A stretch of DNA of 61,502 nucleotides, filler included, from Diploschistes diacapsis (taxonomy: Eukaryota), in assembly GCA_023645945.1 (NCBI GenBank). It is 11 parts of 11 records of this genome, joined end to end, with 100 filler letters (N's around TTAATTAATTAA, not from the genome) between each part and the next. Parts side by side here need not be neighbours in the genome. Positions count along the whole stretch, not along the records: positions 29,717 to 33,170 come from JALAIB010001913.1; 10 more parts are not named here. One strand, given 5' to 3'. The notes beneath the pieces were generated by a model, which saw only the letters and a list, made by a program, of their open reading frames with translations, was not told where the DNA came from and did no database searches. Below, piece by piece: positions 2,014-43,825 of the stretch. The position numbers and the translations under genes were made by a program. Position 1 is the stretch's first letter; each line of letters starts with the position of its first letter.

Positions 2014-3471
2014 ATGGACAGCGACTTCGATAACGTTACGTGGGCTACCGAGTCTGACGGCCAGCTTGATCGACCAGAGTCTCGAGACCATAGCTCAGCA
2101 CTTAGCATCAATGGCAACCGACAGCCAAGCGGGCCTCCTCCACCAAGGCCTTTGGCTGATTCGGTCGACCTGGGTGGAATAGGCTCCGGCTTCCTAGAGT
2201 GCGACGTTGGCTCACCACTGAAGGAGAATGATGGGACAAAAGATTCTTACGTATCTTATGAAATCACTACGCATGTTGGTCTGCCCTCAGTCATGGCCTG
2301 TTTCGGGGGCTAACGTTACCAGACCGACTTCAAAGCGTTTCAGAAATCAACGTTCAGTGTACGACGACGCTTCACCGACTTCGTTTTCCTCTTCAAGAAT
2401 CTCTCCAAAGACTACCCAGCATGCGCCGTTCCCCCGTTACCAGATAAGCAAAGGATGGAATACGTCAGAGGCGATCGCTTTGGGTCAGACTTTACACACC
2501 GCCGAGCTCACTCTCTATACCGTTTCCTCAAGCGCTTAACCCTCCACCCCATTCTACGGCGTAGTACGCTTCTGGTCATCTTCCTCGAGAGCCCGGACTG
2601 GAACGCCCACATGCGTCTCCGACCCGGCCGTAACAGCAACGCCAGCGACCAAACCAATAGCGTCTTCGACAACTTCACCGATAGCTTCGTCAACGCCTTC
2701 AGCAAAGTGCACAAGCCTGACAAGCGCTTCATCGAAGTGCGAGAAAAAGCCGACAAACTCGACGAAGACCTCGGCCACGTCGAGAAGATAATAGCGCGCC
2801 TGGTCCGACGGCAGGGCGACCTCGAAACCGACTACAACGACCTCTCGACGCAATTCATGAAGCTAGCCGTCCTCGAGCCCGGCGTCGAAGCCCCCGTACA
2901 CTCGTTCGCAAAGGGCGTGGAAGCGACGGGCTCGGGCATCTGCACGCTGAAAGAACACACCGATCAGGACTACCTCACCTCCTTGCGAGACATGGAAGCC
3001 TACATCGTCGCCGTCAAGTCGCTCCTCAAGATCCGCGAGCAGAAACAGCTAGACTTCGAGGGTCTGACCGAGTATCTCGCCAAAGCCGTGCAGGACCGCG
3101 ACACGCTCGCCTCTTCGCATCCCTCCTCCGCCCTCTCGAGCCCCACGGGCTTTCTGCGGTCGAAGCTCGAAGACGTCCGGGGCGTCGATCACGAGCAAGC
3201 GCGCAGGGAGCGGGTGCGGAAGCTGGAGCTGCAGATCGAGCGGCTGACGCGAGAAGTGGAGGAGGCGAGGAAGACGACAGAGATGTTCGACGAGGAGGTC
3301 GTCAAGGAGGTCGCGGACTTTGAGCGCATCAAGGCGGCAGAGTTCAGGGATACCCTGGGCGGGCTGGCGGAGAGGCATGTCGCCTTTTATCAAAGCGTGA
3401 TCGAGACCTGGGAAGGGTACATACTGCGGATGGAGAAGGAGGAAGGGGGAGTGCCGGAAGGGATGGCATAG
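2014..3471 (+). CDS. SNX4: Sorting nexin-4 / Atg24 (PX-BAR)
   Basis: MDSDFDNVTW start, intron 2275-2322. PX motif VRRRFTDFVFL..YPACAVPPLPDK, MEYVRGDRFG, and BAR region REQKQLDFEGLTEYL / EDVRGVDHEQARRER. Confidence 0.93.
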
Positions 3472-29301: not shown

Positions 29302-29967
29302 ATCGCTGCCTGTGGCAGGGAGACAGCAAAACCCGTTGCTGGACGATTGATCGTGGCCTCCCCATATCATTAAGCCCTAGCCTCGAAGGCTTCCGGGCCA
29401 CGTCTATTTTTCTTCAAACCGCTGTTTTTCGAATGACCCACGCAAAAGGTCTCATGAGTGACGATGTTCGACAACCCTTCAACCTTCGACCTCCTCTCCC
29501 TCTCCTTCCTCGACCGACCCTTTTTTATACCCCCACCACTTCATTTCCAACCTGCTGGCGCACTCGGCCATCAGCTTCGCAAATTTATGTCAAGCATTGA
29601 TAGAAATGGGGGGGGGNNNNNNNNNNNNNNNNNNNNNNNNNNNNNNNNNNNNNNNNNNNNTTAATTAATTAANNNNNNNNNNNNNNNNNNNNNNNNNNNN
29701 NNNNNNNNNNNNNNNNAAAATACTAGGCGATTATTAAACTTAAACGTCGCTAATTGAACCTTAAGTTCGCCAACTATAAAATCAAAAAAAACACGATTAT
29801 TTAAAAAACATAAATATATCTAATAAAACTTTTAAAGAAATTATCGTATAAACGAGAAAAATACGCGTTAAAGGTTCTTTTTTAATAATTATTTATAATA
29901 TTACTATTTAACTACGGAATCTATAGTAGCTATAGTGCTACTAGGGAGAGTCGCTTGTTCTTGCTGG

Positions 29968-30415
29968 TGTTATGATCTCTATCTCTACAACGTAGACACG
30001 AGGTATCGATCAAGGTAGGTTTGGTCTCGTATAGGAGAGGAGTGTAGGCAGGAAGAAGAAGAAGATCAAGTACGAGTCTGTATTAATTTCTAGAAGTATG
30101 CTGGATGATAGAGGGTATTAATATTGCATTGATCTATCTGTTAGGATAACATAAGGTCTGAACACGCCCGTTTTTATAGAAGTTATGGCGATGTTCTTAT
30201 ATAATCTAAAGTGATAGTTAGTCGTTGATAATAAAGCTGTCGCGATAGCGCTGTTATTGATAGAGGTTTATTATCGATAGATTTGTTTCTGATAGATATC
30301 TGTCGGTAGCCATCTATTAATCATATAATTAATTATATATAACGATAGATCGGGTAATGCTTTTTAATATTATAACGTTGTTAAGTGATTACGTCTAATT
30401 ATTTAGATCGTAATA
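29968..30415 (-). repeat. 3' LTR (about 450 bp)
   Basis: Termini TGTTATGA...TCGTAATA (RIP form of TG..CA inverted ends). Adjacent PPT complement ctatttctttctttt. First 100 bp or so shared with 39844 and 40959. Confidence 0.85.
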
Positions 30416-30507
30416 CTATTTCTTTCTTTTAATTTTGTCGGCCCGATAAGTTCCGAAGGGTAAGTATAAATATTAAATAAAAGAGAATCCTATGTCGTGA
30501 AATAACG

Positions 30508-31017
30508 ATGTCTTTTTTAATTACTCGTAATTATAGATTTGTTAATCGTATCTTTTAATTAGATAAAATTGTTGACTTTCTTTGTTTTTATTGTTTAGTC
30601 TTATATCGCTGTGTTATTATGCCGTTTATTTCTTTTTGTTGCGAAAGGTGCGCTCGTCTCGATCGGAAGAACTATATCTCGACATCTTAGGAGGTTATAG
30701 ATAAGGTACGTGTTTAGGTAGAATTTAAATTAGAATCGGAAGAGGAGAAAAGGCGAAAGCTCTTTTCTTAATTAGTAAAATATGAAGCCCGGATAGAGAG
30801 GTTCCGGAAGATTCTTAAACTAGTCGAAAAGAAATCTATCGAGTAAGCGAAATGTTTTGTCGATTAGTTGGATAAGGAGGTAGAAACGGTTGGGGACCCG
30901 AACAATAATATGGTGCTCGTGGGTAGTTTTTAGGATTTCCGGTATCTTAGCGTTCTGTCGCCTTCTTAAATCAATTGAGAATTAAGAGATGCCGACGTAA
31001 CGACTTCTTTCTTTTAG
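30508..31017 (+). pseudogene. Retrotransposon antisense ORF: Zn2Cys6-like cluster plus coiled coil (RIP-inactivated)
   Basis: 170 codons in one frame. C-x2-C-x5-C-x9-C-x2-C-x7-(C>Y), then STS(W)E..DKVR...EEEKRRKL..EARIERFRKILKL...AKCFVD(Q)L. Internal stops are all derivable from CAA/CAG/TGG by transitions. Confidence 0.75.
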
Positions 31018-31062
31018 GTTAGTATATAAAAAACTTATTTGTATGTGTTTTTTTTATAGTTG

Positions 31063-31135
31063 GATTTAGTAGTTCAATCGATAGAACGTGTGTTTATTTG
31101 ACGCGAGATCGCTGGTTCGATTCCGGCCTGGGTTA
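31063..31135 (+). tRNA. tRNA-like cloverleaf (RIP-degenerate pseudo-tRNA) inside the Gypsy 3' internal region; isotype uncertain
   Basis: GATTTAG-TA-GTTC-AATCGATA-GAAC-G-TGTGT-TTATTTG-ACGCG-AGATC-GCTGG-TTCGATT-CCGGC-CTGGGTT-A. Exact 73-nt geometry, intact B box GGTTCGATTCC, all stem defects are G-T pairs, T5 run at 31144-31148. Confidence 0.75.
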
Positions 31136-33449
31136 GTGAGGTGTTTTTAGTAATGTTTCACGACAATACCGAAGATTTCTTAGTTTTTTTCTTTTTTTCT
31201 TTTTCTTGTGAAGATGTTACTGCCTCTTTTTCGCTTCTTCTTGTCGTGATAGGCCCTTAACACGTCTTTATAGTTAATTAATACCCGTTATGGTTCTTAC
31301 GTATACTGGTCGTCTGGATATCTTTTTTATTTAATTAGGTAACCTCGAGGGTTATCGTTAAAGATTTTTTTAACTTTATATTCGGTTTCTTCGTTTGATT
31401 CGAAATAGAACGTGGTCTGAAATAATATATCTAAGTATGCTGATTTAAGTTTAAATATATGGAAAACCAGTGTTTTAAGTTTCGTATTTAGTGAGAGGAC
31501 GAGTCGGTAGGAAACCTTTAGTTATCCGTCCGTTATTTCTGGTTGCTCGTTTATAAGGAAAGGTCCGATCTTTTTATTGTTAAGCTTTTTAAAAGGTTTT
31601 AGTAAGCGAAGGTTATTAGCGAGTAAATAGACCTTATTTTCCTTTTTTAGTTGAAGATCTTTTTTAAATTGTGTTTATCTTGTTCTTTCTTAATGCTTTT
31701 TTCTTAATCGTAGTATTGTTTTAATAAATAAATCGGTATTTTTAATATCCTTTTTTTAATAATACCGACTTTTTAGTTCTTATTTGATTATTAATAACAG
31801 TTCTACCCAATTGTTTATCTCGTAGTTGACGTAATGGCGTAATATTTATTTTAATGTTTGATTTATTTTTTTCGTCTGTCTATTCGTTTGTGGATGGAAT
31901 GCTATTAAATGCTTAAATTTTGTTCCGAAGATCTGTATCATAATTTTTTAATAACTCGATATAAATAATAATCCGCGATTATTAATTATTTCTTTTAAGT
32001 GCCCGTTATGTCTTATCATTTTATCGGTTTATATTGCGTGTAACTTTTATGTATTGTAATCTTTTCTGAACGGTAGGTATATTGATTTGTTGTTAAATCT
32101 GTCAACGATTATTTAAATGGCGTCGTATTCGATATTTATTATTGGATTTCTGAATTTTGGTAGTTTTGTGATAAAATCCATTATGATTGATTACTATTAT
32201 TTCTATGGTTTGGGTATGATTTATGTAATACCGTACTTTTTGTGTGTTGAATGTTTGTTCTTCTGACAGCTTTCGTATTGTTTAATGAAGTCCGTAATTT
32301 GTTTCTTCATTCCTTTGAAATGGCAGTTTCGTTAAATAATTTTAATAGTATTCGTGATACCTTTATGTCCGTATTTCGGTGGATCATGATATTATCGTAT
32401 ATAATCTTAAATCCTCTCTACGGGAATATGTAACTTTTTTTTAATTATTGGATATTTTTCTTGTTAATCTTCGAGAATATTTATGATTGCGATAAATTTT
32501 TGAAAATCTGTTGTTAATGATCCGTTATCGTTGATCTTAAGTAACTTCGCTTGTCGTGATTTTCTGATTATATAGTCTAATCGTCGACTAAACGCGTCAA
32601 CTCGTTCGTTAGTTTTATTTGTAATTCGCTTGATCGTGAAACGATATCGTCCGAAAATTTCTGATCATCGAAACTATCTCGGGTTAAATTTTTTTGTCGT
32701 TGTGAACTTTAGTAAGTTTATATGGTTTATGTAAATTTCGGTTTTTTTTGTTTTATCTATATAGTTATACTATTCGTTTAGCGCTGCGATTATAACGAAT
32801 AATTTTTGGTCGTTTATATCGTAATTCTGTTTTATTAATAACATCTTTCGTGAATAACATGTTACTAACCGTTACTTGTCGTTACTGTCGGGTTAAAGTA
32901 AGTATGCCGTTATAGCTTGTTTTAAAGCATCGGTTTCGATTCGTATTGGTTTATTTGGATTATAAAATCCTAAGATAGGTGCGTTAATCGTAAAATCTTT
33001 GAATTTTTGGAACGTTTGTTCTTGTTTTGATGTCTATTTAAAAAATAAGTTTTTTCGTATAAGTCTAATTAATGGTTCTGTTTTTTTTAAATAGTTTTTA
33101 ATGAATTATCGGTTGTAATTAATGAATCTTAAGAAGGACTGGATATCTTTCACGTTCTTTAGGGTTAATTNNNNNNNNNNNNNNNNNNNNNNNNNNNNNN
33201 NNNNNNNNNNNNNNTTAATTAATTAANNNNNNNNNNNNNNNNNNNNNNNNNNNNNNNNNNNNNNNNNNNNATTATATAGAGATCTAAGTACCTAGTAGAG
33301 CCACAGTGAACTAGGCAGAATGCACATTAGGGCGCCATTAAATATGTTACACAATTTTACAGTAGGCAGAATAAGACATACCCTGATACCGGGGAAGGAA
33401 GATGATGATGAGTTGGGCGGGATGTGGCAGGAGGAGGGGGTGGAGTGAG

Positions 33450-36400
33450 TGGGTTTCGTACAAGCTATTCATAGTCGGCCGCGGTGTAGATAAATAAGAG
33501 CTTTAAGATGTCGTCAGTAAGCGCGCAGTAGTCTGTGACTGTTGCACCGCATCTATACGGGATATTAGAAGCTGGTCGACCGTATTGAGATTCACCTTGA
33601 TAGTTGAGGCTGATAAAGAAATAGGCCTTAATAAAGCATAAATTAAGCATATATATTCAAGCATTTTATCTAATTGTGATATTACATGTATCTAAATTTC
33701 GACTTAACATGGTGTTTTAAGTAATGATATCTTTCTTTCTATCATCTATTTCGTTTAACGGGCTTCTTAGCGATTGAATAGATTCACGCGTTCCTCGAAG
33801 TCTATATAGGCCTCTATTTCTACCAAATCGCCGACCGGATGCCCTTATGCCGCCCTTTTAAGAAGAAACGTATACCTTTTAGCGTGTTATTCGTGCCGAT
33901 TAATCGTTAAAGGCCACAATACGTAGCTTAGATACTTATTTGCTTTATCCTTATCAATCGCCACGAAATGGGGGTTCCCGGGAACTAATCGTTCGTGTTG
34001 GTTTGAGAATTAATAATTGGTAAAATCGGTGAGTGCTGGGCGTAGTCCCTCGATCATCGCCTGGATATTCTCGAGGCTAACATTTAAAAACATTTATTAT
34101 ATTAATAAAAGTAATAGTAAGCGCGGGTAAAGGACGTAATAATTTACCTTACTAAAAGACCGCGTTAATATACGAGACGTAAATATCTTAAATCAACTTC
34201 TATTGTTCTTGTAAAGAATATAAAGTAATGTTTCCTTTAATATTCCTTGTTCGTCATCTTCGTCGGACTCATATACCGTACCTTTTGGAAGAGGGGAGCG
34301 GGGAGGAGATTAAGGAGATTAATCGCTCGCAAATTTGTTATTATAAATAAAGACGTGATTAACATAAGAACTTAAGAAAAGCATTATAACGCAAAAGGAA
34401 CTAGCTTACCTAAACATCTTATTTGCTAAGTCGAACAATTTTTTAACGTGACGACGGTATTCAGCGGCCTCGGTCTTATGTGTAACACGTTTGTTGAACG
34501 TGAAAGTGAAATTAGGGCTGCAGCCAGAGCTAGAACCAACGCCAGGACTAGCGCTAAAGACAGAAGCAGAAGCTATCTAATAGGATCCAAAAAAGTTTTT
34601 AAGACGTAATCTAACTAATAAAGTAAAAGGAAATGTGTCGATTGATTATAAGGTTAAAATAAAATAAGTCGGCTATTTGTGGGAATAAGAGGTCCGCTAT
34701 AAGGATAATATTGAGGTAATAAATATCGGCGTAAACGTTATCTTTCAAATAAGTTACACGTTGTTTACTTATGATCTATCGAGTTTTACAACCTCAATAA
34801 AGGTCGAAACAAGGACTATATATAAAAGATAAGCGAATTCGATTGGTGTCGATTGTGACATTAATAACAAATACCACATTCTCTTTCCTTCTCGCTTTCC
34901 GGCTTTGCAGAGACCTTCCGATTCGTCGACAACTTTCTTACGAAAGTCGTCTTCTTCGACCTACCTGGTCGTACTATATACATTAAAACCTAAGCAGCTG
35001 GACTATACGCCGCGATGCTCAATTTCGATAAATAAAAAGCGGCAACGACGGTAAGGGAAGGACGGACGGCGGAAGTTTACTACTTTACAGACTTGTAACT
35101 GGCACGCAGTCGAAGCTATTAAAGCAGAATTAATTCGCGCGGGTAGATACAACAAAAAAAGAAGAGAAGAACTTACCGATTTAATCTGGACTTGTTAAGC
35201 TATTAAACAATAATACAGATCTTATTAATGCAGAAGTCAATAATCAAATATTTGTAGATTTTCCTTGCATCTTCTAAATCAGCCCGATGTGACATATCCT
35301 ATCGACAATGCGGGTCCAGGACGTTTTAAGTTAATAATTGCGGTAATTTATTCCGTGGTTTGTTGAGTGTGAATAAAGTTCTTGTTATATGTATACTACA
35401 ATATCGTCAGATTAACTTTCACGTAAGGAATATAATGATGTATAGATAATCTTTAAAGCTTATTATGTGTCCAAAGTCGAGCTGGTTTAAAATGAATAAG
35501 TACGGACCCTACTAACATAAACATACAGATGGATCAACTTATTAAACATATACCTATTAAATAGTTATCAGGGTAGCTTAAATAAAAACACGTTATTGCC
35601 GTCGTCGCCCATTCTTTTAATAAAACAACGGAGATTATTGTTTAGAAAAAAAGCGAAGATATAAAAAGCACGTTTCGTATTATTACCGCGTTACGGATTT
35701 CGAAAATACTAATTACAATGTTATCAAAAATCATGGCGTAAATAACAGCACTGCCGCTGATAATGTATCGATCGATAATCTTATAACCTAGGATTTTAAG
35801 AATACAGCCGGAAAATTTCAATAAAACGTAGATAAGTGTATTGATTTGTTTTTCGTCGCTTTTTAGAGTTCTTGGGCATATAAGAATACGAAAAGATGTC
35901 TAGAAGTTCTCGAATATGATATCTCGTTTCTTATTAAATATTATCTTAATGTTAGAAAGGTCATGCTTAAATAAATATAGTAATAAAAATATAATATTCT
36001 TAATCAATTTTCGCCGATTATCGATGTTTAAAATTTAATAAACTTTATTAACCAATTAAAGATCATCGGATAACATGAATTTATAGATATCGTATATATT
36101 AAAACTTCCCGTTTCAACTCTTTATTAAGACCATTCTTAAAGGCGAAAGTATGGTAAGCTTACACGATGCCCAGAAAACCCTCGTCGTAGATTATACTTA
36201 CAATTAATTAAAACTAGCGGATACGGGTCTTCCTAGCCGCGTGGTGTATATTATAAATAGCCACTTCCGATTTATTAAATCGCAGGGACTCATAATTATT
36301 TTAATTAAACTGACAGACGAGATATGATACAAAATAAACTCTTTTAACGGTTATATTATAAAAACCGTTACCGTGTTCTTTTTTAACGGAAGCTTTAAAT

Positions 36401-36722
36401 CACGATATATGATCGATATATAACAAAATATGGGATTCTAACTCGCTTTAAGGTACTTAAAAAAGTATCTATTGATTCGAAGCATCCGCAACGGGTCTAT
36501 AATTTAATTCATTCGATACGTATTGCCTTTCACGTTGTGCTACGCGTCTAAAGCATGTGTTAATTTTTGTTATTATGACTGATCGGAAAATTCTTAATCC
36601 GAATGTTAGCGTCCTTACAGCATAATAGGATAAACTTTAAAATATCAAAGTAAAAAGAAGTTGTATTATTCGCTCAATTTAGAGACGTTATAGTTAATAT
36701 TTATAACGATTTAATAGCCGTT
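33450..36722 (-). pseudogene. RIP-degenerated long spliced gene or repeat of unknown family
   Basis: TpA-rich, CpA-poor. Long minus-strand frames with scattered TAA/TAG (e.g. HKTEAAEYRRHVKKLFDLA, YESDEDDEQG, VEEDDFRKKVVDESEG). GTAAG donors near 35177 and 34409. Confidence 0.45.
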
Positions 36723-37149
36723 NNNNNNNNNNNNNNNNNNNNNNNNNNNNNNNNNNNNNNNNNNNNTTAATTAATTAANNNNNNNNNNNNNNNNNNNNNN
36801 NNNNNNNNNNNNNNNNNNNNNNATATATATAAAGACGAGAACAAGCTCGATCTATATTAAGGATCGAGATAGTAATAATATAGATCGAATTAATTATTTA
36901 ATTTATTTTAATAGGTAAAGAAAGGACTATAAAGGTAACTCTAGATGACTAGAGTAAGAAAAGGAGAAATAATTGTAAGGTTAAATAAAGAACATACCAA
37001 TAGTCGGACAAGCGGCACTCAGGGTCTTGGCTTGCGGGTACTTGAAAGGGGATTTTGCCCTTCTTACTCTCTCCTCTTCTTTAGTAATTAGTCCTAGCAT
37101 GAATCTGCCCTGCGTGCAGCCATCTTGCCACATTGTCGTATTCCACCCT

Positions 37150-37312
37150 TTACAATTACGATGTCCGTGTTCGTGAATTTACGGAAATATAATGTCCGTG
37201 TTAATATCCGTGTTTTAAATTTTTAGCTATAATGTCCGTGTCAATATCCGTGTTTTAAAATTTTTTATTATAATGTCCGTGTTAGTAACCGTGGCACGAA
37301 ACGGCCAGCCTA
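37150..37312. mobile_element. Partial copy (one end) of the hAT-like MITE
   Basis: gtccgtgt subterminal repeats ending in gtggcacgaaacggccagccta, matching the right end of 46747-47106. Confidence 0.8.
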
Positions 37313-37643
37313 GCTGAACCTACTTGGGTTCCTGTTAATTCGGGTTGGGAGTAGCGCAAGCCTGTAGGGCTTAGTGGATCCCATAGGTATAAAGGCTTGC
37401 ATGTAGGTTATTCCTCTGAGATAGATCTTTAGACTCAATACATACGTTGCACAATACAACCTACTATTTTTGTATTTACTCATCAACGATAACGTATGAT
37501 ATTATTATTAAATATTAAATAAGCTTTATAACTGGCAATAGGATGTTGCCGAAACTATAAAAGTATTTATCTTTCATTTATATTAAATTAAAAAACTAGT
37601 TGTTAAAGTTATTTAGATTTCTAAATATTCAGCTAACCTTAAT

Positions 37644-37796
37644 GAGCAGGGGTGTGGGGATGCAACCCCCAAAAAATAAAAAAAGCAGGGGTTTAGGGGT
37701 TGCACCCCCCAATAAACCTACCCAGTTTTTTAAGCCTAGATTTTCTACTTAATATTTACTGCTTAGGAACTTGGAGGCTACTTGCCGACACGTGAT
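37644..37796. repeat. Dispersed repeat with GGGG-TGCA-CCCC hairpins (probable DNA-transposon end)
   Basis: agcaggggtgtggggatgcaaccccc twice, then agttttttaagcctagatttt...taggaacttggaggctacttgcc. Homologous to 43975-44181. Confidence 0.75.
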
Positions 37797-38209
37797 ATTA
37801 TTTATCAGGGCATAAGCATTTGCTAGTAGGGGGGACACAAAGAGATCTGGCTTGGCGCTTGGAGCGATGTCGCTTGGCATGGATACACAAATGAAATCAC
37901 TTACTTCCATCACTAAGACTTTTCCTTGTGCTGAGGCTGTGGATCTAAGCTTCCCAGGAGTTTGCGGGTGGGTTTGTTGGACTTCCCTGAGGTTAGCCAT
38001 CAAAGCTTATCGAGTCAGACATTAACTTCCACCTCCAAGTGAGAAAAAAATCATAATTCCCAGAGAATATGGGCAGAACAAGCTAATTTAGGCCAGATTG
38101 CAACACGTCTCTGCTTTTTAAAGTAGAAAAAAGCAGCTTTTCTGATCTCCTCACTCACATCCCCTTCTTGCAAACAAAGCCTACCCCATAAGACCAAAAA
38201 AAATTACTT

Positions 38210-39490
38210 ATGGCGCTCAGAGACATATCGAACTTGCAAGAGGGCGGTTTAGGAATGCCTACTTCATCACGTGAGCGAACTAAGGGTCTTCTTCTTAACC
38301 CAGGATTCAGCCTCTTGAATACCAGCACAGGACGTTTTAAGCCACCAAATGAAGATCAATGCAAAAGCATTCTAGCGCTGTTCCCACATACCTCTATCTG
38401 GTGCATAGCAACTGAAAGGAATTCGTTGGTTCTTGTATGTGACGCCCTGCCGCCTCCCCCAAGACCTGTCAAAATTGCGGATGTACCAGTCTATTGGACA
38501 ACACAATACAACGACCGTGGTTTTGCCACTGACATAAGACATCGCGGCTTTGCACCGGCTGTCATGACAGATGTTATTCTACCACCATTATCTCTTCATA
38601 TCCCAAAGAGTATTCTGAATGAGTTTGCACAATATTGCGAAACAAATGGCATTCCGCTGTACAGTCTTACCAGCTCAGTCGGTGGTTGTCTCATCGGGAC
38701 CTTGCGGGAACATAGGAACGTTATGTCCTTACCTCGATCAATCGGAAACAAGGCCTTGTATTGGAAATCTAAGGGCAATATGGAGGAACTGGCACGCAGA
38801 AACCATACACCAACGCTGGAAACACCCGATCTAACTTCTTATGGAAACATTATGCGGCCAGGGGTTGCAATCGAATGCATATCTGGCAGCGATTTACTCG
38901 GTACGACACTCGGCGTGCGAGTTATGTCCCATGACGGTGACCGGAAATGTATAACCGTAGCGGCTCATGGTTGCCCGGACCTTAATGACATATATCAGCC
39001 AAGAGTATCAGGTGGTCGCAAGATTGGGACAGTTATTAAGCACCTGGGAGACACAGACATCGGCCTGATGCAACTTGAAAATCATATCGTCCACGAGAAC
39101 GAGGTCTTCGGAAACGAATACCAAGCAACGGGATTTCGTCTGCGGGAAATTACATCTCAATCCGACGAGCCGGAATTTATCGAGCTTAACAGTCCTTACG
39201 ATGGGTACATGATGGGCACTGTCGCGCGAATTGAGTACCGGAGAATCGCAGAGGAAGGATTACACGAAGAGATAGGGGAGAAATACACATGGGTCACGAT
39301 TCTCTGGTCTCCAATGCACACACCGAGTGGTGTCCTTGTATCTCCAACAAATGGCACGTGTGGAACCCCTATTACGCTCTTGGATGGAGCTGGTCTTGTG
39401 AGCTTCTTCAGGTTTCACGACTATGAGAATAAGATGAGCATTTCTATTGCTGCTTCTAACCTGAGGAGCTTTGGGTACGACCTCGCATAA
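38210..39490 (+). CDS. Intronless chymotrypsin-fold (PA clan) peptidase-like protein with a His-Asp-Cys triad
   Basis: 426-aa intact ORF. RPGV.I...GTTLGV.V, ITVAAHG (His253), DTDIGL (Asp283), NGTCGTPI (Cys384 at the GDSGGP position). Confidence 0.7.
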   Translation: MALRDISNLQEGGLGMPTSSRERTKGLLLNPGFSLLNTSTGRFKPPNEDQCKSILALFPHTSIWCIATERNSLVLVCDALPPPPRPVKIADVPVYWTTQYNDRGFATDIRHRGFAPAVMTDVILPPLSLHIPKSILNEFAQYCETNGIPLYSLTSSVGGCLIGTLREHRNVMSLPRSIGNKALYWKSKGNMEELARRNHTPTLETPDLTSYGNIMRPGVAIECISGSDLLGTTLGVRVMSHDGDRKCITVAAHGCPDLNDIYQPRVSGGRKIGTVIKHLGDTDIGLMQLENHIVHENEVFGNEYQATGFRLREITSQSDEPEFIELNSPYDGYMMGTVARIEYRRIAEEGLHEEIGEKYTWVTILWSPMHTPSGVLVSPTNGTCGTPITLLDGAGLVSFFRFHDYENKMSISIAASNLRSFGYDLA

Positions 39491-39843
39491 AGAAAGTATA
39501 TTGATCAATGTCGTGTAGATAGATCAATATTAAAACTAGACTTTCTATCAGATTACTAACCTAAATGGGTTAGTCCTACAATAATACTGCCTTATTATTA
39601 TACCTGCTATTTAGCAGCTATTTCCCTAATGATTCACTGCCTAATTAGTCACCCCACTTCCACTTTCAACATGTTATAAGCCCGGAGCGACAATTCCTAC
39701 TAGGCAACACTATTTCGAAATATCTGCTTTTGGATCATAGGACCCTGGGGGCATCTGATCCAAAATTACGCAACTATTCCTATTAGAAGAAATTTATTTC
39801 TACTAGGGCGACACTATCCCTATTAGGACGAATTTATTTCTAT

Positions 39844-40274
39844 TGTTATGATCTCTATCTCTATAAGGTAGACACGAGGTATTGATTAGGGTAGGTTTGG
39901 TCTCGTATAGAAGAGGAATATAAGTAAAAGAAGAAGAGAGAATAATTATAGGTCGTGGACTACTTTTAAAAAGAAGATTTTAATAAAAAAATAACGAATA
40001 TGTTTAGCAACGTAATGGATATATTGAAGTCTAGAGGTCTTATCCTATAAAGATATCCTACTGCGCAGACTTTTATACCCTACGGGATCCGCTAAGTCTT
40101 ATTATTAATACTACTCCCGACCGGTTTAATCAGAATTCCAGGAAATTCAGCTAAACTAAACTTTAAAGTTCAGTTGAACTGAACCCTCGATTAGAACTTA
40201 ATCGAATTTTTAATCATACCTTCTATCTATCTGCTTAATATTTCTTTATAAGCGGAATCTTTTAGTATGTATAT
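39844..40274 (-). mobile_element. LTR of the same Gypsy group, truncated by contig end, probably nested in another LTR-like repeat starting about 39672
   Basis: tgttatgatctctatctctataaggtagacacgaggtattgattagggtaggtttggtctcgtatag, near-identical to 29968 and 40959. Preceded by a 40-bp direct repeat at 39771-39843. Confidence 0.8.
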
Positions 40275-40554
40275 NNNNNNNNNNNNNNNNNNNNNNNNNN
40301 NNNNNNNNNNNNNNNNNNTTAATTAATTAANNNNNNNNNNNNNNNNNNNNNNNNNNNNNNNNNNNNNNNNNNNNTTATAATAGTTATCGTACGATCGATT
40401 TTATTAATTATTATAAAAATAATAACATCATTCCGTTCTATATATCTGTTTATTTATCGTATATCCTTCAGCCTTTTAATGTCGGATGTTTTAGATCGTT
40501 CAAGATTACGTACGGTAAGGAAATTAAGTAAATAATGCGTACGTAAATTATATA

Positions 40555-40958
40555 ACGTGTTTGACGGGGAAGTGGGCCACCCCCAGAAGTGGGCCACTTT
40601 TGCCAAGAAATATTTTAAATCTTTAATAACTCTTCGAATTTAATCGTCATTTTTGATTTTTCTCGAAATATTACTACTAGCCCAATCATCTATCATACCC
40701 GAAAAGTGCACATTGATTATGTCGGCAGTTATCCTTTTAAAGCGAATTGAAAATAACGACTCGAAAACACGTATTATGTTATCTTTCAAAGTCGGACATA
40801 ACGCAGCAAAAAATATGTTTTTTAAATATATTATTATAAGCTGATTTATGCGTAGATCTTAATAAAACTATAAAAAAACGTTTTTTCGACGCTATACAGT
40901 CGTTGTGTGGTCTTATTCTTTAAAATCAGTAGATTTAAAGAATTTTGGTTGGCGACGG
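40555..40958. mobile_element. End of a Fot1/pogo-like DNA transposon interrupted by the Gypsy insertion
   Basis: TA followed by ACGTGTTTGACGGGGAAGTGGGCCACCCCCAGAAGTGGGCCAC: ACGT start and internal 12-bp direct repeat typical of Fot1/Pot2 TIRs. Only one end is visible. Confidence 0.55.
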
Positions 40959-43825
40959 TGTTATGATCTCTATCTCTATAACGTAGACACGAGGTATTGA
41001 TCAAGGTAGGTTTGGTCTCTGGTAGAAAAGGAGTATGGAAGGAGAAGAAATAGATCGCTTATAGGTCTATACTGATTTTTAAAAAGATTACTTTTTAATA
41101 ATAAAGATAACGAATATAAATTAATCTCGAACAATCGCTAAAGATATCTATTAAAATAAACACGTAAAACACAAATAATTTTAATTAAAAATTTATATAT
41201 CGAAACCTTCGAGGAAGTATTAATATCAGCTCCCATTGTTTCTCCGGAATAAAGGAAGCGGCGACGATATCTCCTATAGAACAGAAAGAACGCTATTTAT
41301 TATTCGCTTAAAACCTATAAATCGGCGCCTTTCGCTCCAATAACTCACGTGATACACGCGTTAATGAATTCCTAAATGAATGGCTGGGACGTGATAGGTC
41401 TATTACCTGAATCGTAATATTATCTTTTTCTTTCAGCATTATCGGCCCGACAATCCGCCGAAGGATTTAATTACATAAACGAAAACCTGTCCTTATTTCA
41501 TTCTTTTATAATGCATTCCTTCACTCGTCGTTAACGTAAGGTTATATACTACAACAGAAGAAAAGAACGTTTTCGTTTTACCGACGAAATTAAATCTTTT
41601 TAATATTTCTTTAAGATAGCCTGTAATTCTTGTTTAGTTTCCGATTATCTTTACTTTATGATTCTTTTTGATGTTAACGTTGGTTCTAATAAATGTTTTA
41701 AATATATTCGTTTAAAGAGGTCTTGTTCCTTTCGCTCGTGATTTTCGTTGGACAGGATCCGAAACTAATAAGCTGTTAAGTTGTTATCTTTAGAACGGGA
41801 TCGCGATTAAAAATTTAAAGAACTTTTTAAGATATAAATAAGAATTAATAAAGAACGTAAGGTTTAGGAATTAACGTAAAAGAAAGCGATCACGAAGATT
41901 CGTTACCTTGCCTAATAACTAAAGGATGATGGCAAGAATTTATTAATAGAGGATATTCTCGTATCGGCGGATTTTTAAGCAAAATTATTCGGTCTCTGGC
42001 CTGTTATTAAAATTCCTAGAAATATAGATGTAAATTAAGACATTCTACTTAACCCGGTGGTTTTTAATATCTCTTTCGCAAGAAGGAACCGCTGTTTCCT
42101 CGAGTTAAATCAGGTATACGTAAGTGTTTTAAACTTTTTAACCCTAGTCTTAGTTGTTCTTTATGAAGGGTCCATTGACCTTATAAAACTTTATTAATTT
42201 TTTTTTGTAGTTCTTTAGGTTTTCCTTGGATTCTTATGTCATATCTAACTCTAGATATTCTTTTTACTTGATTAAGTACTTGTCGTCTTTATAATATACG
42301 ACTGCTTCGACTTCGTATTCGTTCTCGTTATTTAATTTAAAGTAGAAGATTTTCTATAAAGGTGTATCTAGGTATACTAGTTCGAGGTATCTTGAATAAA
42401 ATACTAGATATATTTTAGTATCTTTTAATAGCTTGAGTCGATAGCTGACTCGTTTAGTTTCGTCCGGTATGACGGGTTATTTATCGATAAGGAAGGGTTC
42501 GACTTTGACGTGATCTAGTTTTTTAGAGGGTCTACGTGTTTTGAGGTTATTTATGTATAAATAGATCTTATCTTCCTTCTTTAGCTGAGGATTCTTTTTT
42601 AAGATTCTAAATCTTTTAATATTATTCAGTGCCTCGTTGTTTAATAATTATATATTTTAAATCTTCTTAACTTCTTTATATCTGTTATTAAGGTAGTATT
42701 CGGCGTTCGGTAACAGTTTAATTTAATTGTTTATATTTTAATTAACGTAATATCGTAAGTATTGTTTAAAAGTTTAATTTATTCTTTCTGTTTGACCGTC
42801 TATTTATGGGTAATAAGCGTTTAAATACTTTAGCTTCGTACCGAACGCTTTTATTATGGTTTTCTAATATCTTGAGGTAAAGAGCTTATCTCTGTCGTTA
42901 ATGATTTCGTCTGGATGTTTATGAATCTTTATAATTCGATTTATTCATATATGATGTAATTATCTTACGTTGTAGTCTTTTCTGAAAGGTATGTAATGCG
43001 GTTTGTTATTAAACTTGTCTATTATGACCTAAATGTTGTTATATGAAACACCTATCATTGGATCCTTAGATATTAATAGTTTAATTATAAAGTTTATCGT
43101 GATTATCTTTTATGATTGATCTGGTTTCTTAATGGTTTATGGAATCCCGTATTGTTTATACGTAGAATGCTTGTTCTTTTAATAGCTCTCGTATTATTTA
43201 ATAAAATCCGTGATTTATTTCTTTATTCTTTCGAAATAACAGTTTCGTTGAATAATTTTAATAATATTTATAATATCTTTATATCCGTATTCCGGTGAAT
43301 TATGGTGTTATCGTATATAATTTTATATCTTTTCGGTAAGAATCTATAGCTTCCGTCGTATTATTAAATATTGTTCGTGTTAATCTTTTAAGATATTTAT
43401 AACTGTTATAAATTCTCGAAAATCTGTTATAAATGATTTATCATTATTAATCTTTAATAATTTAACCTGACGCGGTTCTTTTGTCATATAGTCTGGCCGT
43501 TTGCTCAACGCGTTAGTCCGTTCGTTTGCTTTATTTGCGATCTTTTTAATTGTAAAACGATATCGTTCGAGAATCTTTAATTAACGAAACTATTTAGGAT
43601 TAAGTTTCTTTATCGTCGTGAACTTTAATAAGTTCATATGGTTTATATAAATTTCGGTTTTCTTTGCTTCGTGAACATAGATGTATTATTCGTCTAAAAT
43701 AACGATTATGGCGAATAATTTCTAATCGCCTATGTCGTAATTAATTTTTATTAATAACATCTTTCTCGAGTAACAGGCTATCAGCCGTCACTTATTATTA
43801 TTGTTAGATTATAATAGGTATATTA
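40959..43825 (-). mobile_element. Second, divergent RIP-mutated Ty3/Gypsy chromovirus, 3' half
   Basis: Colinear with 29968-33170: RNase H (NYDIGD.KLFAII, NALSKRPDY), integrase, VKVEPFLI, chromodomain ENEYEVEAVV...YLIK(W)K.Y...MT(W)E. 3' LTR 40959-41419 with adjacent PPT. Confidence 0.92.
41511..42038 (+). pseudogene. Retrotransposon antisense ORF: Zn2Cys6-like cluster plus coiled coil (second homolog)
   Basis: 176 codons in one frame. ACNSC-x6-(C>Y)-x13-CFK(C>Y)IRLKRSC-SFRS(W)FSLDRIR...LERDRD...KIR(C)LA..L. Confidence 0.75.

Follow-up and report, generated by a model that had tools for sequence, protein, structure and literature searches.

A RIP-inactivated antisense frame in a Diploschistes diacapsis chromovirus belongs to a family of six-cysteine proteins

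The window analysed here is a 61,502-nt stretch of joined records from the genome assembly of Diploschistes diacapsis (GCA_023645945.1). Copy A, a Ty3/Gypsy element read on the minus strand, lies on a separate contig of 3454 bases (29717–33170), joined to its neighbours by N44-TTAATTAATTAA-N44 linkers. Its 3′ long terminal repeat (LTR; 29968..30415, minus strand) is 448 bp in length and has the terminal inverted repeats TGTTATGATC and GATCGTAATA, which differ by transitions only. The LTR start recurs in copy B, at 40959, and in a third piece, at 39844, and the GTAACA terminus is also found in the metagenome loci described below. The LTR is abutted by a polypurine tract (PPT; 30416..30430), AAAAGAAAGAAATAG on the minus strand, in a block conserved in copy B. 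The 3′ part of pol (31180..33170, minus strand) was defined by Pfam, translation and the first stop, which follows the chromodomain at 31180–31182, and is cut by the contig end at 33170. RNase H, the integrase zinc domain and the SH3 domain of the window pol were recognized by Pfam, and the chromodomain was identified by eye and alignment only. Copy A pol is 34–38% identical to the intact pol of loci in which the Chromo domain passes Pfam. With RNase H, integrase, a C-terminal chromodomain, TG..CA LTRs and a PPT, the carrier is a chromodomain-bearing Ty3/Gypsy element (chromovirus).

Between the PPT and the pol stop, the plus strand holds a frame of 170 codons (30508..31017) that is full length relative to the protein family described below. 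Its ATG lies 92 nt inside the LTR edge. Nine internal stops and a terminal stop interrupt it. The initial annotation had claimed this antisense frame, its motifs and its surroundings; the frame reads as claimed from ATG 30508, and the pol stop, PPT and LTR lie where it placed them. The cysteine pattern is C26-x2-C29-x5-C35-x9-C45-x2-C48-x7-Y56, as claimed (codons 26–56; 30583..30675, plus strand). It aligns to six invariant cysteines of 37 intact relatives, with Y56 in the place of the sixth. Downstream are STS*EVIDKVR, a charged helix and KCF, the last matching the claimed KC motif. The stop in this string, a TAG at codon 61 (30688..30690, plus strand), aligns to the near-invariant Trp of an SWExLD motif in relatives.

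Taken alone, the frame is no more open than chance. It has 10 stops including the terminal one, compared with 13.1 ± 3.2 for this frame after dinucleotide shuffling, where the least interrupted of the six frames has 7.1 on average. Seven cysteines are present vs 3.4 expected (P 0.037), an excess that is only marginal. Pfam returned no matches for the frame, even at E ≤ 10, and pol domains only for all six frames of 30001–37500 and of the spacer. These figures favour a chance frame in AT-rich DNA marked by repeat-induced point mutation (RIP), the cysteine pattern being an accident of T/G-rich composition. Despite this chance-level openness, the frame is a real gene relic because it is homologous to intact proteins. 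A phmmer search of 1.84 billion proteins with the frame gave 29 matches at E ≤ 1e-3, of which 28 are true relatives (E 5.7e-19 to 9.5e-4). The top match, P0001, is a bacterial FIVAR repeat protein and was dropped as spurious. Most of the true relatives are 140–205 aa long, similar to the window frame, and matches cover query residues 1–137 (P0002), 7–164 (P0005) and 58–163 (P0003). Relative P0006 has the exact pattern C-x2-C-x5-C-x9-C-x2-C-x7-C.

The initial annotation had also claimed a frame free of frameshifts and broken only by RIP-type stops, and the alignments support it: the 28 relatives align without a frame change, and several stops fall on Trp or Gln. Besides stop 61, stops 70 and 88 align to Gln of P0009, stops 113 and 120 to Gln of P0003, P0007 and P0008, and stop 157 to Trp of P0005. 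The RIP indices fit. TpA/ApT is 1.08–1.14 in the element pieces vs 0.74–0.81 in GC-rich pieces, and (CpA+TpG)/(ApC+GpT) is 0.56–0.64 vs 1.15–1.27. The copy A ORF is dead through RIP.

Copy B has a 3′ LTR (40959–41419) and PPT (41420–41434), located together at 40959..41434 on the minus strand. Its pol tail, from integrase to chromodomain (42150..43825, minus strand), has 50% amino acid identity to copy A and is cut by the contig end. A RIP-dead relic of the antisense ORF is found at 41511..42038 (plus strand), its ATG being 91 nt inward of the LTR edge. Both copies therefore share a layout, with the ORF between PPT and pol stop on the strand opposite pol. The copy B relic matches the copy A frame with a Smith-Waterman score of 86, in the same frame, whereas the other 35 frame pairs reach at most 51 and the null maximum is 56; it also aligns with the antisense-ORF family. 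This homology is visible at the protein level only. A MAFFT DNA alignment of the two spacers gave no convincing homology outside the LTR/PPT block, and tblastn at E 0.01 missed it. Since both ORF copies are dead, nothing is made from them in the window, and the window copy is a relic with no present function. Homology, full-length alignment and the copy B match refute a chance frame, to which we give practically no probability.

A second search, with an intact member as query, gave 151 protein clusters at E ≤ 1e-3. The relatives are mostly unnamed or hypothetical. Among the best 120 of the 151, the named hosts belong to several Dothideomycete genera, and one relative is labelled a Zn(2)-C6 fungal-type domain protein in UniRef. 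Three Atlas clusters, with 210, 122 and 99 members, are drawn mainly from Ascomycota. Members of about 165 aa share a basic helix at the N-terminus and six cysteines, followed by the motif SWExLDR, a helical stretch of about 60 residues and a Cys-Leu pair that is conserved; a C-x-R-x-G-R/K segment is also conserved. Eight positions are invariant in 37 intact members (I20, C31, C34, C41, C50, C53, C60 and R102). No domain beyond the Cys knot was detected by Pfam in the members tested.

Genomic context was taken from 28 metagenome loci, found with a narrower family alignment. Another locus, L029, was left out of the counts (E 1e-3, GC 0.73, a 465-aa ORF). Gypsy pol adjoins the ORF, convergent and on the opposite strand, in 22 of the 28 loci, which bears on the question raised in the initial annotation, whether relatives lie consistently beside chromo-integrases. 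The six loci without pol have a right flank of 418 nt or less, and pol adjoins the ORF at every locus with a right flank of at least 395 nt except L022 (418 nt). Loci L004 and L020 hold complete gag-PR-RT-RNaseH-IN-chromo elements, with Pfam Chromo matches at the very C-terminus (E 3e-18 and 4e-19). An LTR edge and PPT lie 51–106 nt upstream of the ATG in 18/21 loci. The tails of ORF and pol overlap in 11/12, usually by 7–94 nt of the chromodomain end. An accessory gene on the strand opposite gag-pol, between pol stop and PPT, is thus supported in copy A, copy B and the loci.

The ORF is intact in 23/28 loci. For pairs with dS 0.35–1.05, dN/dS is 0.045–0.09, and all computable pairs are below 1 (maximum 0.80); the check on intact copies that the initial annotation had suggested thus gives purifying selection. 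Identity is 0.59 for the ORF vs 0.62 for the pol C-terminus (Pearson 0.69). Strong purifying selection acts on the antisense ORF, and its divergence goes along with that of pol.

Two further readings bear on this conservation. In one, the conserved feature would belong to the sense strand, for instance an extension of pol or a structured RNA of the 3′ UTR, and would not be an antisense protein. Locus L004 does have a 156-aa sense frame open across the same stretch, but each sense-strand frame, like every other frame, is closed in 21–22 of 22 loci; the antisense frame is open in 22/22, these loci being chosen for an intact ORF. Pol stops before the stretch, and the low dN/dS belongs to the antisense frame, so a sense-strand origin is extremely improbable. 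In the other, the ORF would be a host gene that lies beside one element, or was once captured by it, and is no standing part of the element family. A tRNA gene, a piece of host-type DNA, sits in the same gap of copy A. Against this, both window copies, though diverged from each other, have the ORF on the inner side of the PPT/LTR boundary, as do the loci counted above; the ORF adjoins pol and diverges with it, and clusters of 34 and 11 near-identical proteins are spread over many large contigs. A host gene is very improbable. The frame is very probably the RIP-inactivated remnant of a true third gene that a lineage of ascomycete Ty3/Gypsy chromoviruses carries.

All six cysteines are present in 117 of 177 family proteins, and 108 of these 117 have the canonical Zn2Cys6 spacing (C-x2-C-x6-C-x5/12-C-x2-C-x6/8-C). 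The window sub-family has the spacing x2/x5/x9/x2/x7, in which the second gap is one residue off the canonical value. The initial annotation had proposed a comparison with Pfam Zn_clus (PF00172), and this failed at the cut-off: none of 37 members reaches the gathering score (best 18.7 bits vs 21). Zn_clus is the commonest sub-threshold Pfam match, present below threshold in 13/37. A PROSITE-type Zn2Cys6 pattern fits 1 of 177 proteins.

Two AF2 models were obtained (pLDDT 88.3 and 83.4). All Foldseek rows listed are Zn2Cys6-cluster entries down to rank 16 for the full model and rank 18 for the N-terminal model; the best matches are Ppr1 (E 0.15, prob 0.87) and Pho7 (rmsd 2.4 Å over 40 columns). 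In a Foldseek-independent search, 14 of 48,161 chains scored Z ≥ 2, and seven of the 14, including ranks 1–4, are Zn2Cys6 domains. Locally, the knot model fits Leu3 over 38 residues at 1.7 Å and Gal4 over 36 residues at 2.0 Å. In the structure comparison proposed in the initial annotation, the top matches are mainly Zn2Cys6 domains, but their scores are all weak (Foldseek E at least 0.15, VIA Z 2.0–2.8). A profile search of PDB sequences gave nothing below E 0.5 (Ppr1 E 5.6, Pho7 E 5.8), and AF2 may simply be reproducing a learnt Cys pattern. From the spacing and the models we infer that the six cysteines form a Zn2Cys6-like binuclear knot.

A homodimer was predicted with an ipSAE of 0.50, the best of three controls reaching 0.02. 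The ipSAE mark is attained by 21 of 30 proteins whose solved structure is a pair of one chain, and by none of 23 solved as single chains (17/29 and 0/30, respectively, on eukaryotes). At least 78% of contacts are shared between the dimer runs, with a partner pLDDT of 73 or more. An antiparallel coil is predicted (contacts 75–107, 79–103 and 89–93), and in the model the knot and SWE region of each chain are contacted by the conserved C120/L121 of its partner. The model supports, without showing, homodimer binding, and we infer from it that the long helix forms an antiparallel homodimer. Such a dimer would hold its two knots at the two ends of a rod, widely separated, in an arrangement that differs from every Gal4-type dimer.

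The initial annotation had claimed a Gal4-type DNA-binding architecture, with six conserved cysteines in Zn2Cys6-type spacing followed by a dimerization coil. The spacing (108/117) and a long helix predicted to dimerize are supported, and the Gal4-type Zn(II)2Cys6 domain (PF00172; Gal4, Ppr1, Put3, Hap1, Leu3, Pho7) is the best, and almost the only, structural match of the family, at weak scores. DNA binding of the Gal4 type is not supported. The family is below the Pfam cut-off in all 37 members tested, the predicted coil is antiparallel, and the basic residues after Cys2 are missing, with a mean of 0.49 Lys/Arg between Cys2 and Cys3 (177 proteins). In Gal4-type proteins this stretch is the DNA contact. 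Gal4-type Zn2Cys6 domains also have a Pro before Cys4 that is absent from the antisense-ORF family. The family has no regulatory or activation region, and its gene is borne by a retrotransposon and not by the host.

Tentatively, the protein may be a zinc-dependent dimeric binder of nucleic acid or chromatin working for the element, as suggested by geometry and analogy only. Its likeliest task, at less than even odds, would be to regulate expression of the element from the LTR. The antisense gene starts 50–106 nt inside the 3′ LTR/PPT boundary and ends tail to tail with pol; its mRNA might be transcribed from an antisense promoter within the 3′ LTR or immediately inward of it, again on geometry and analogy only. 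It is also possible, though short of probable, that the gene is a real element-borne accessory gene whose product is no DNA-binding transcription regulator. The Cys knot would then be a structural zinc module and the antiparallel rod would work by contacting proteins or RNA; examples of such roles are the assembly of particles, the handling of cDNA, the targeting of integration together with the chromodomain and interference with host silencing. The missing DNA-contact residues, the failure to reach Zn_clus, the antiparallel dimer with C120/L121 packed on the partner's knot, and a length of only about 165 aa with no further Pfam domain all fit a structural module. DNA-binding Zn2Cys6 domains are, however, the only folds that resemble the knot model, the basic N-terminal helix and the C-x-R-x-G-R/K segment are present, and one UniRef name among the best 120 of 151 points to a Zn(2)-C6 domain.

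Accessory genes are rare in LTR retrotransposons. HBZ of HTLV-1 and ASP of HIV-1 are read antisense from the 3′ LTR of a retroelement, and HBZ is a dimerizing (bZIP) nuclear regulator. Both belong to animal retroviruses and have unrelated folds, so the likeness is an analogy only. A bolder proposal, which we consider unlikely, is that a trans-acting factor is encoded by many ascomycete chromoviruses themselves. Its expression would be driven by an antisense promoter in the 3′ LTR, and it would combine a knot derived from Zn2Cys6 with a dimeric, antiparallel rod. By binding to LTRs of its own element or to host chromatin, this factor would activate the element, restrain its copy number or weaken genome defence. 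If true, the factor would be a fungal counterpart of HBZ and would provide the first mechanism for antisense genes of the brtn type.

The novelty of the gene is limited, as an antisense gene in the same position has already been published as brtn, in the Boty-like elements of Botrytis (Zhao et al. 2011, Virology 417:248, as cited in PMC8365987, PMC7264820, PMC4227169 and PMC5987419). In these accounts, brtn is likewise an extra gene of a fungal Gypsy element with a chromodomain; it is read from the opposite strand and located after pol, ahead of the 3′ LTR, and its function is stated as unknown (PMC7264820). The likeness is one of position and orientation; in the passages citing brtn, cysteines, zinc and a coiled coil are not mentioned. 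Hosts also differ, the named relatives here (among the best 120 of 151) being from Dothideomycetes and the brtn hosts being Leotiomycetes. Among the matches listed in protein searches (9 in the first, the best 120 of 151 in the second and 10 in the third) none is called BRTN, and a literature search for a zinc-cluster antisense ORF in fungal retrotransposons found citations of brtn only.

Plant Ty3/Gypsy elements (Grande1, RIRE2, Retand, PvRetro13) carry antisense additional ORFs, termed aORF-3R, between pol and the 3′ LTR (PMC7264820, PMC4408406). These ORFs share position and orientation with the fungal gene, are retained by most copies and are about as conserved as the other proteins of the element. 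They differ in carrying PMD, transposase 28 and coiled coil domains, and in belonging to non-chromovirus Tat/Retand lineages with long spacers, whereas the fungal gene is compact and overlaps the pol tail. That antisense ORFs in this position have other domains in plants, with functions described as unknown, also fits a product that is not a transcription regulator (PMC7264820, PMC4408406). According to PMC7264820, a function is known for none of the antisense ORFs that lie in the interval from pol to the 3′ LTR. The present family offers a concrete lead, being small, widespread and strongly selected, with a recognizable design of putative zinc knot and predicted dimer. It also matters for genome annotation that these transposon proteins are filed as host hypothetical proteins; one among the best 120 of 151 is listed as having a Zn(2)-C6 domain.

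The tRNA gene noted above is a RIP-marked tRNA-Asn (31063..31135, plus strand), detected by ARAGORN and by Rfam (tRNA, 40.5 bits vs a gathering score of 29). Its anticodon reads ATT, and a T5 run follows. It lies in copy A, between the stops of ORF and pol, which are separated by 162 nt. Other diverged copies bridge this tRNA gene, and it is absent from the copy B spacer and from all 29 metagenome loci. A tRNA-Asn between antisense ORF and pol is unusual and belongs to the window's lineage, where, wedged between the two genes, it might act as a 3′-end or boundary signal.

The Gypsy element studied here (copy A) lies on the piece at 29717–33170, which has a GC content of 0.31. Window 26062–58082 (20 N runs) consists of size-sorted separate contigs of ~3.45 kb each, joined by N44-TTAATTAATTAA-N44 linkers, so that pieces side by side lack physical linkage. 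A RIP signature marks the copy A piece and several others, with TpA/ApT of 1.08–1.14 and (CpA+TpG)/(ApC+GpT) of 0.56–0.64, compared with 0.74–0.81 and 1.15–1.27 in GC-rich pieces; the usual thresholds are 0.89 and 1.03. Copy A pol is encoded on the minus strand and truncated by the contig end at 33170. Pfam domains include RNase H, an integrase zinc domain, and a Tf2-type SH3, and translation gives a chromodomain-like tail (..YLIK*KRYPDDQYT*EP..), after which the first stop is at 31180–31182 (−). The 3′ LTR (29968–30415, −) has inverted-repeat termini TGTTATGATC / GATCGTAATA, two transitions apart, and adjoins a PPT (30416–30430, −). A second element, copy B, is colinear with copy A on piece 40375–43825, with its LTR at 40959–41419, PPT at 41420–41434, and pol stop at 42150–42152 (all −); the two pol proteins are 50% identical. 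The LTR start recurs a third time at 39844–40274 (+), where it is 87% identical over 95 nt to 29968–30062 and reaches the end of piece 36823–40274. A ~40-nt unit (..TATAATGTCCGTGT.AATATCCGTG) is repeated three times in tandem at 37173–37293 (+), on a piece other than that of copy A.

The initial annotation read a 170-codon frame at 30508–31017 (+), antisense to gag-pol between the pol stop and the PPT, and this reading was reproduced as written. On its own statistics the frame is unremarkable. It has 10 stops versus 13.1 ± 3.2 in shuffles, where the best of six frames averages 7.1, contains 7 Cys versus 3.4 expected, and has no Pfam match even at E ≤ 10. The observation is nevertheless confirmed by homology. 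When frames of the copy A and copy B spacers were compared in 36 pairs, the frame against one plus-strand frame of B scored 86 and all others ≤51; 222 frames from other RIPed DNA of the window gave a mean of 32 (sd 5.9, maximum 56), and reversed controls scored 31. A phmmer search of 1.84 billion representatives returned 29 matches at E ≤ 1e-3. The top match, the bacterial FIVAR repeat protein P0001, was discarded. The remaining 28 are small proteins of 46–263 aa, mostly 140–205, that align from Met1 to the C-terminus of the frame with no frame change. In relatives, Trp or Gln stands opposite six of nine internal stops, and the invariant sixth Cys stands opposite Tyr56. The proposed C-x2-C-x5-C-x9-C-x2-C-x7-C pattern is matched exactly in one relative, P0006. 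The gene is dead in the window.

An intact member used as query retrieved 151 clusters at E ≤ 1e-3. Among the best 120, all but two are unnamed or "hypothetical protein"; the exceptions are a mislabelled cluster and a Periconia protein listed in UniRef as a Zn(2)-C6 fungal-type domain protein. Among the matches listed, named hosts are Dothideomycetes, and Atlas neighbours are unnamed clusters, mostly from Ascomycota, with 210, 122, and 99 members. Near-identical clusters of 34 and 11 members are spread over many large contigs. Across 37 aligned intact members, I20, Cys 31, 34, 41, 50, 53, and 60, and R102 are invariant; M44, S64, W65, D69, K105, C120, and L121 are near-invariant. The source name of P0135 (129 aa, 15 member sequences, 24 contigs), "anaerobic ribonucleoside-triphosphate reductase," looks like a mis-annotation. 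P0015, filed in NCBI nr as a Quercus suber hypothetical protein, may come from a fungus within that assembly, because every other relative is fungal.

Scanning metagenome contigs for the family pattern gave 29 loci, of which 28 were counted after L029 was excluded as spurious. The ORF is intact in 23/28 (157–234 aa); it stops after 94 aa in L002, L025 and L026 have a GC content of 0.30, and L027 and L028 run off the contig. Gypsy pol, from RNase H to chromodomain, lies on the opposite strand directly past the ORF 3′ end in 22/28 loci, and the six loci without pol have flanks of ≤418 nt. This supports the proposed linkage to chromo-integrases and an antisense accessory gene in a chromovirus. 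An LTR terminus (GTAACA) and PPT lie 51–106 nt upstream of the ORF ATG in 18/21 loci; the LTR edge is 92 nt from the ATG in copy A versus 91 nt in copy B. Two loci, L004 and L020, hold complete chromoviruses encoding gag, protease, RT, RNase H, integrase, SH3, and a C-terminal Chromo domain. Their gag proteins have a zinc knuckle and a WCCH motif, the latter below the 22.4-bit cut-off (L004 252–2135 (−), 20.8 bits; L020 1157–3370 (−), 21.8 bits). The contig ends of L004, L012, L015, L018, and L020 overlap with a period of 6.2–6.5 kb. They resemble circular permutations of a single element assembled with only one LTR, for which LTR collapse, copies in tandem, or one-LTR circles could account.

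Coding constraint was assessed by NG86, with the last 25 codons removed and pairs of <60% or >99.5% nucleotide identity excluded. dN/dS is <1 in every computable pair, the pairs not being independent; the maximum, 0.80, comes from a barely diverged pair. Values are 0.069 for L012/L015 (dS 0.41), 0.085 for L005/L007 (dS 0.35), and 0.049 for L012/L016 (dS 0.95). Mean identity is 0.59 for the ORF versus 0.62 for the pol C-terminus, and these identities are correlated (Pearson 0.69; 66 pairs, 12 loci). The other five frames contain stops in 21–22 of 22 loci, which were chosen for an intact ORF. In L004, a 156-aa sense-strand frame (2718–3188, −) spans the antisense gene without a stop; since it is closed in the other loci, it is probably an accidental by-product of constraint on the opposite strand.

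A Gal4-type architecture had been proposed, and it held in part. All six Cys are present in 117/177 family proteins, the remainder being fragments or RIPed, and 108/117 have canonical Zn2Cys6 spacing, most commonly x2/x6/x10/x2/x6. Against this, none of 37 members reaches the Pfam Zn_clus cut-off, and the segment after Cys2 is not basic, averaging 0.49 Lys/Arg. A PROSITE-type pattern fits 1/177 proteins. Zn_clus is still the commonest sub-threshold Pfam match (13/37; best 18.7 bits versus 21), followed by DUF3716 (5/37). A profile search of PDB sequences found nothing significant. The AF2 model of family member P0012 (pLDDT 88.3) has a helix at 8–23, a small knot at 24–60, a long helix at 65–127, and a helix at 139–148. 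Foldseek gave no match at E ≤ 0.001 for this model, and all rows listed to rank 16 are Zn2Cys6-cluster entries; those listed include Put3, Pho7, Gal4, Ppr1, Leu3, Hap1, a CBF3 chain, and 1cld. Re-alignment gave Z of 2.0–2.8, with Leu3 matching locally over 35 residues at 1.5 Å. A model restricted to residues 1–72 of another member (pLDDT 83.4) returned the same Zn2Cys6 list, led by Ppr1 (E 0.15, prob 0.87). A Foldseek-independent search of 48,161 chains found 14 at Z ≥ 2, of which 7, including ranks 1–4, are Zn2Cys6 domains. These scores are too low for proof and the AF2 knot may repeat a learnt pattern, so the predicted fold is called Zn2Cys6-like only, and the protein is not placed in the Zn2Cys6 family.

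The proposed dimerisation coil has support from modelling. Two P0012 chains with four zinc ions were predicted as a complex with ipSAE 0.50, versus 0.02 for the best control. The ipSAE mark is reached by 21/30 same-chain-pair structures and 0/23 single-chain structures, and on eukaryotes by 17/29 pairs versus 0/30 single chains. Runs showed at least 78% contact agreement and partner pLDDT of at least 73. The model supports self-binding and does not prove it. Predicted contacts 75–107, 79–103, and 89–93 form an antiparallel coil, unlike the Gal4-type dimer, which is parallel. In the complex, residues 117 and 120 of one chain are touched by the partner's knot and SWE region.

The evidence supports the core interpretation of the initial annotation: the antisense accessory gene is genuine and encodes a zinc-knot plus coiled-coil protein. 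DNA binding and regulation by this protein, and LTR-driven transcription of its gene, are inferred. The general arrangement already has published precedent in "the additional antisense gene brtn" of Boty-like retrotransposons (Zhao et al. 2011, as cited in PMC8365987, PMC7264820, PMC4227169, and PMC5987419). According to these sources, BcGypsy1 has brtn as its additional ORF, a gene missing in the current genome annotation (PMC8365987); in Botrytis and Sclerotinia the gene sits on the antisense strand between pol and the 3′ LTR, and what ORFs of this type do is not known (PMC7264820). The likeness to brtn is one of described strand and position. No paper linking a zinc cluster to an antisense ORF of this kind was found in the literature searched.

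A RIP-marked tRNA-Asn gene (31063–31135, +; ARAGORN; Rfam 40.5 bits), followed by a T5 run, lies in the gap separating the stops of the ORF (31017) and pol (31180). No tRNA gene was found in any of the 29 metagenome loci or in the copy B spacer. Most loci instead show an ORF/pol overlap here: a stop-free pol tail was recovered in 12/14 loci tried, and in 11/12 the ORF and pol overlap tail to tail by 7–94 nt. Sequencing runs X1 and X2 contain 1486 and 11,533 contigs, respectively, matching 29968–31700 at ≥80% likeness, and X1 changes are transitions in 498/517 listed kinds. Diverged separate contigs bridge the tRNA-Asn gene (X1 records 3 and 5, X2 record 13), and by these sequences it therefore seems to belong to the element lineage rather than to a single copy.
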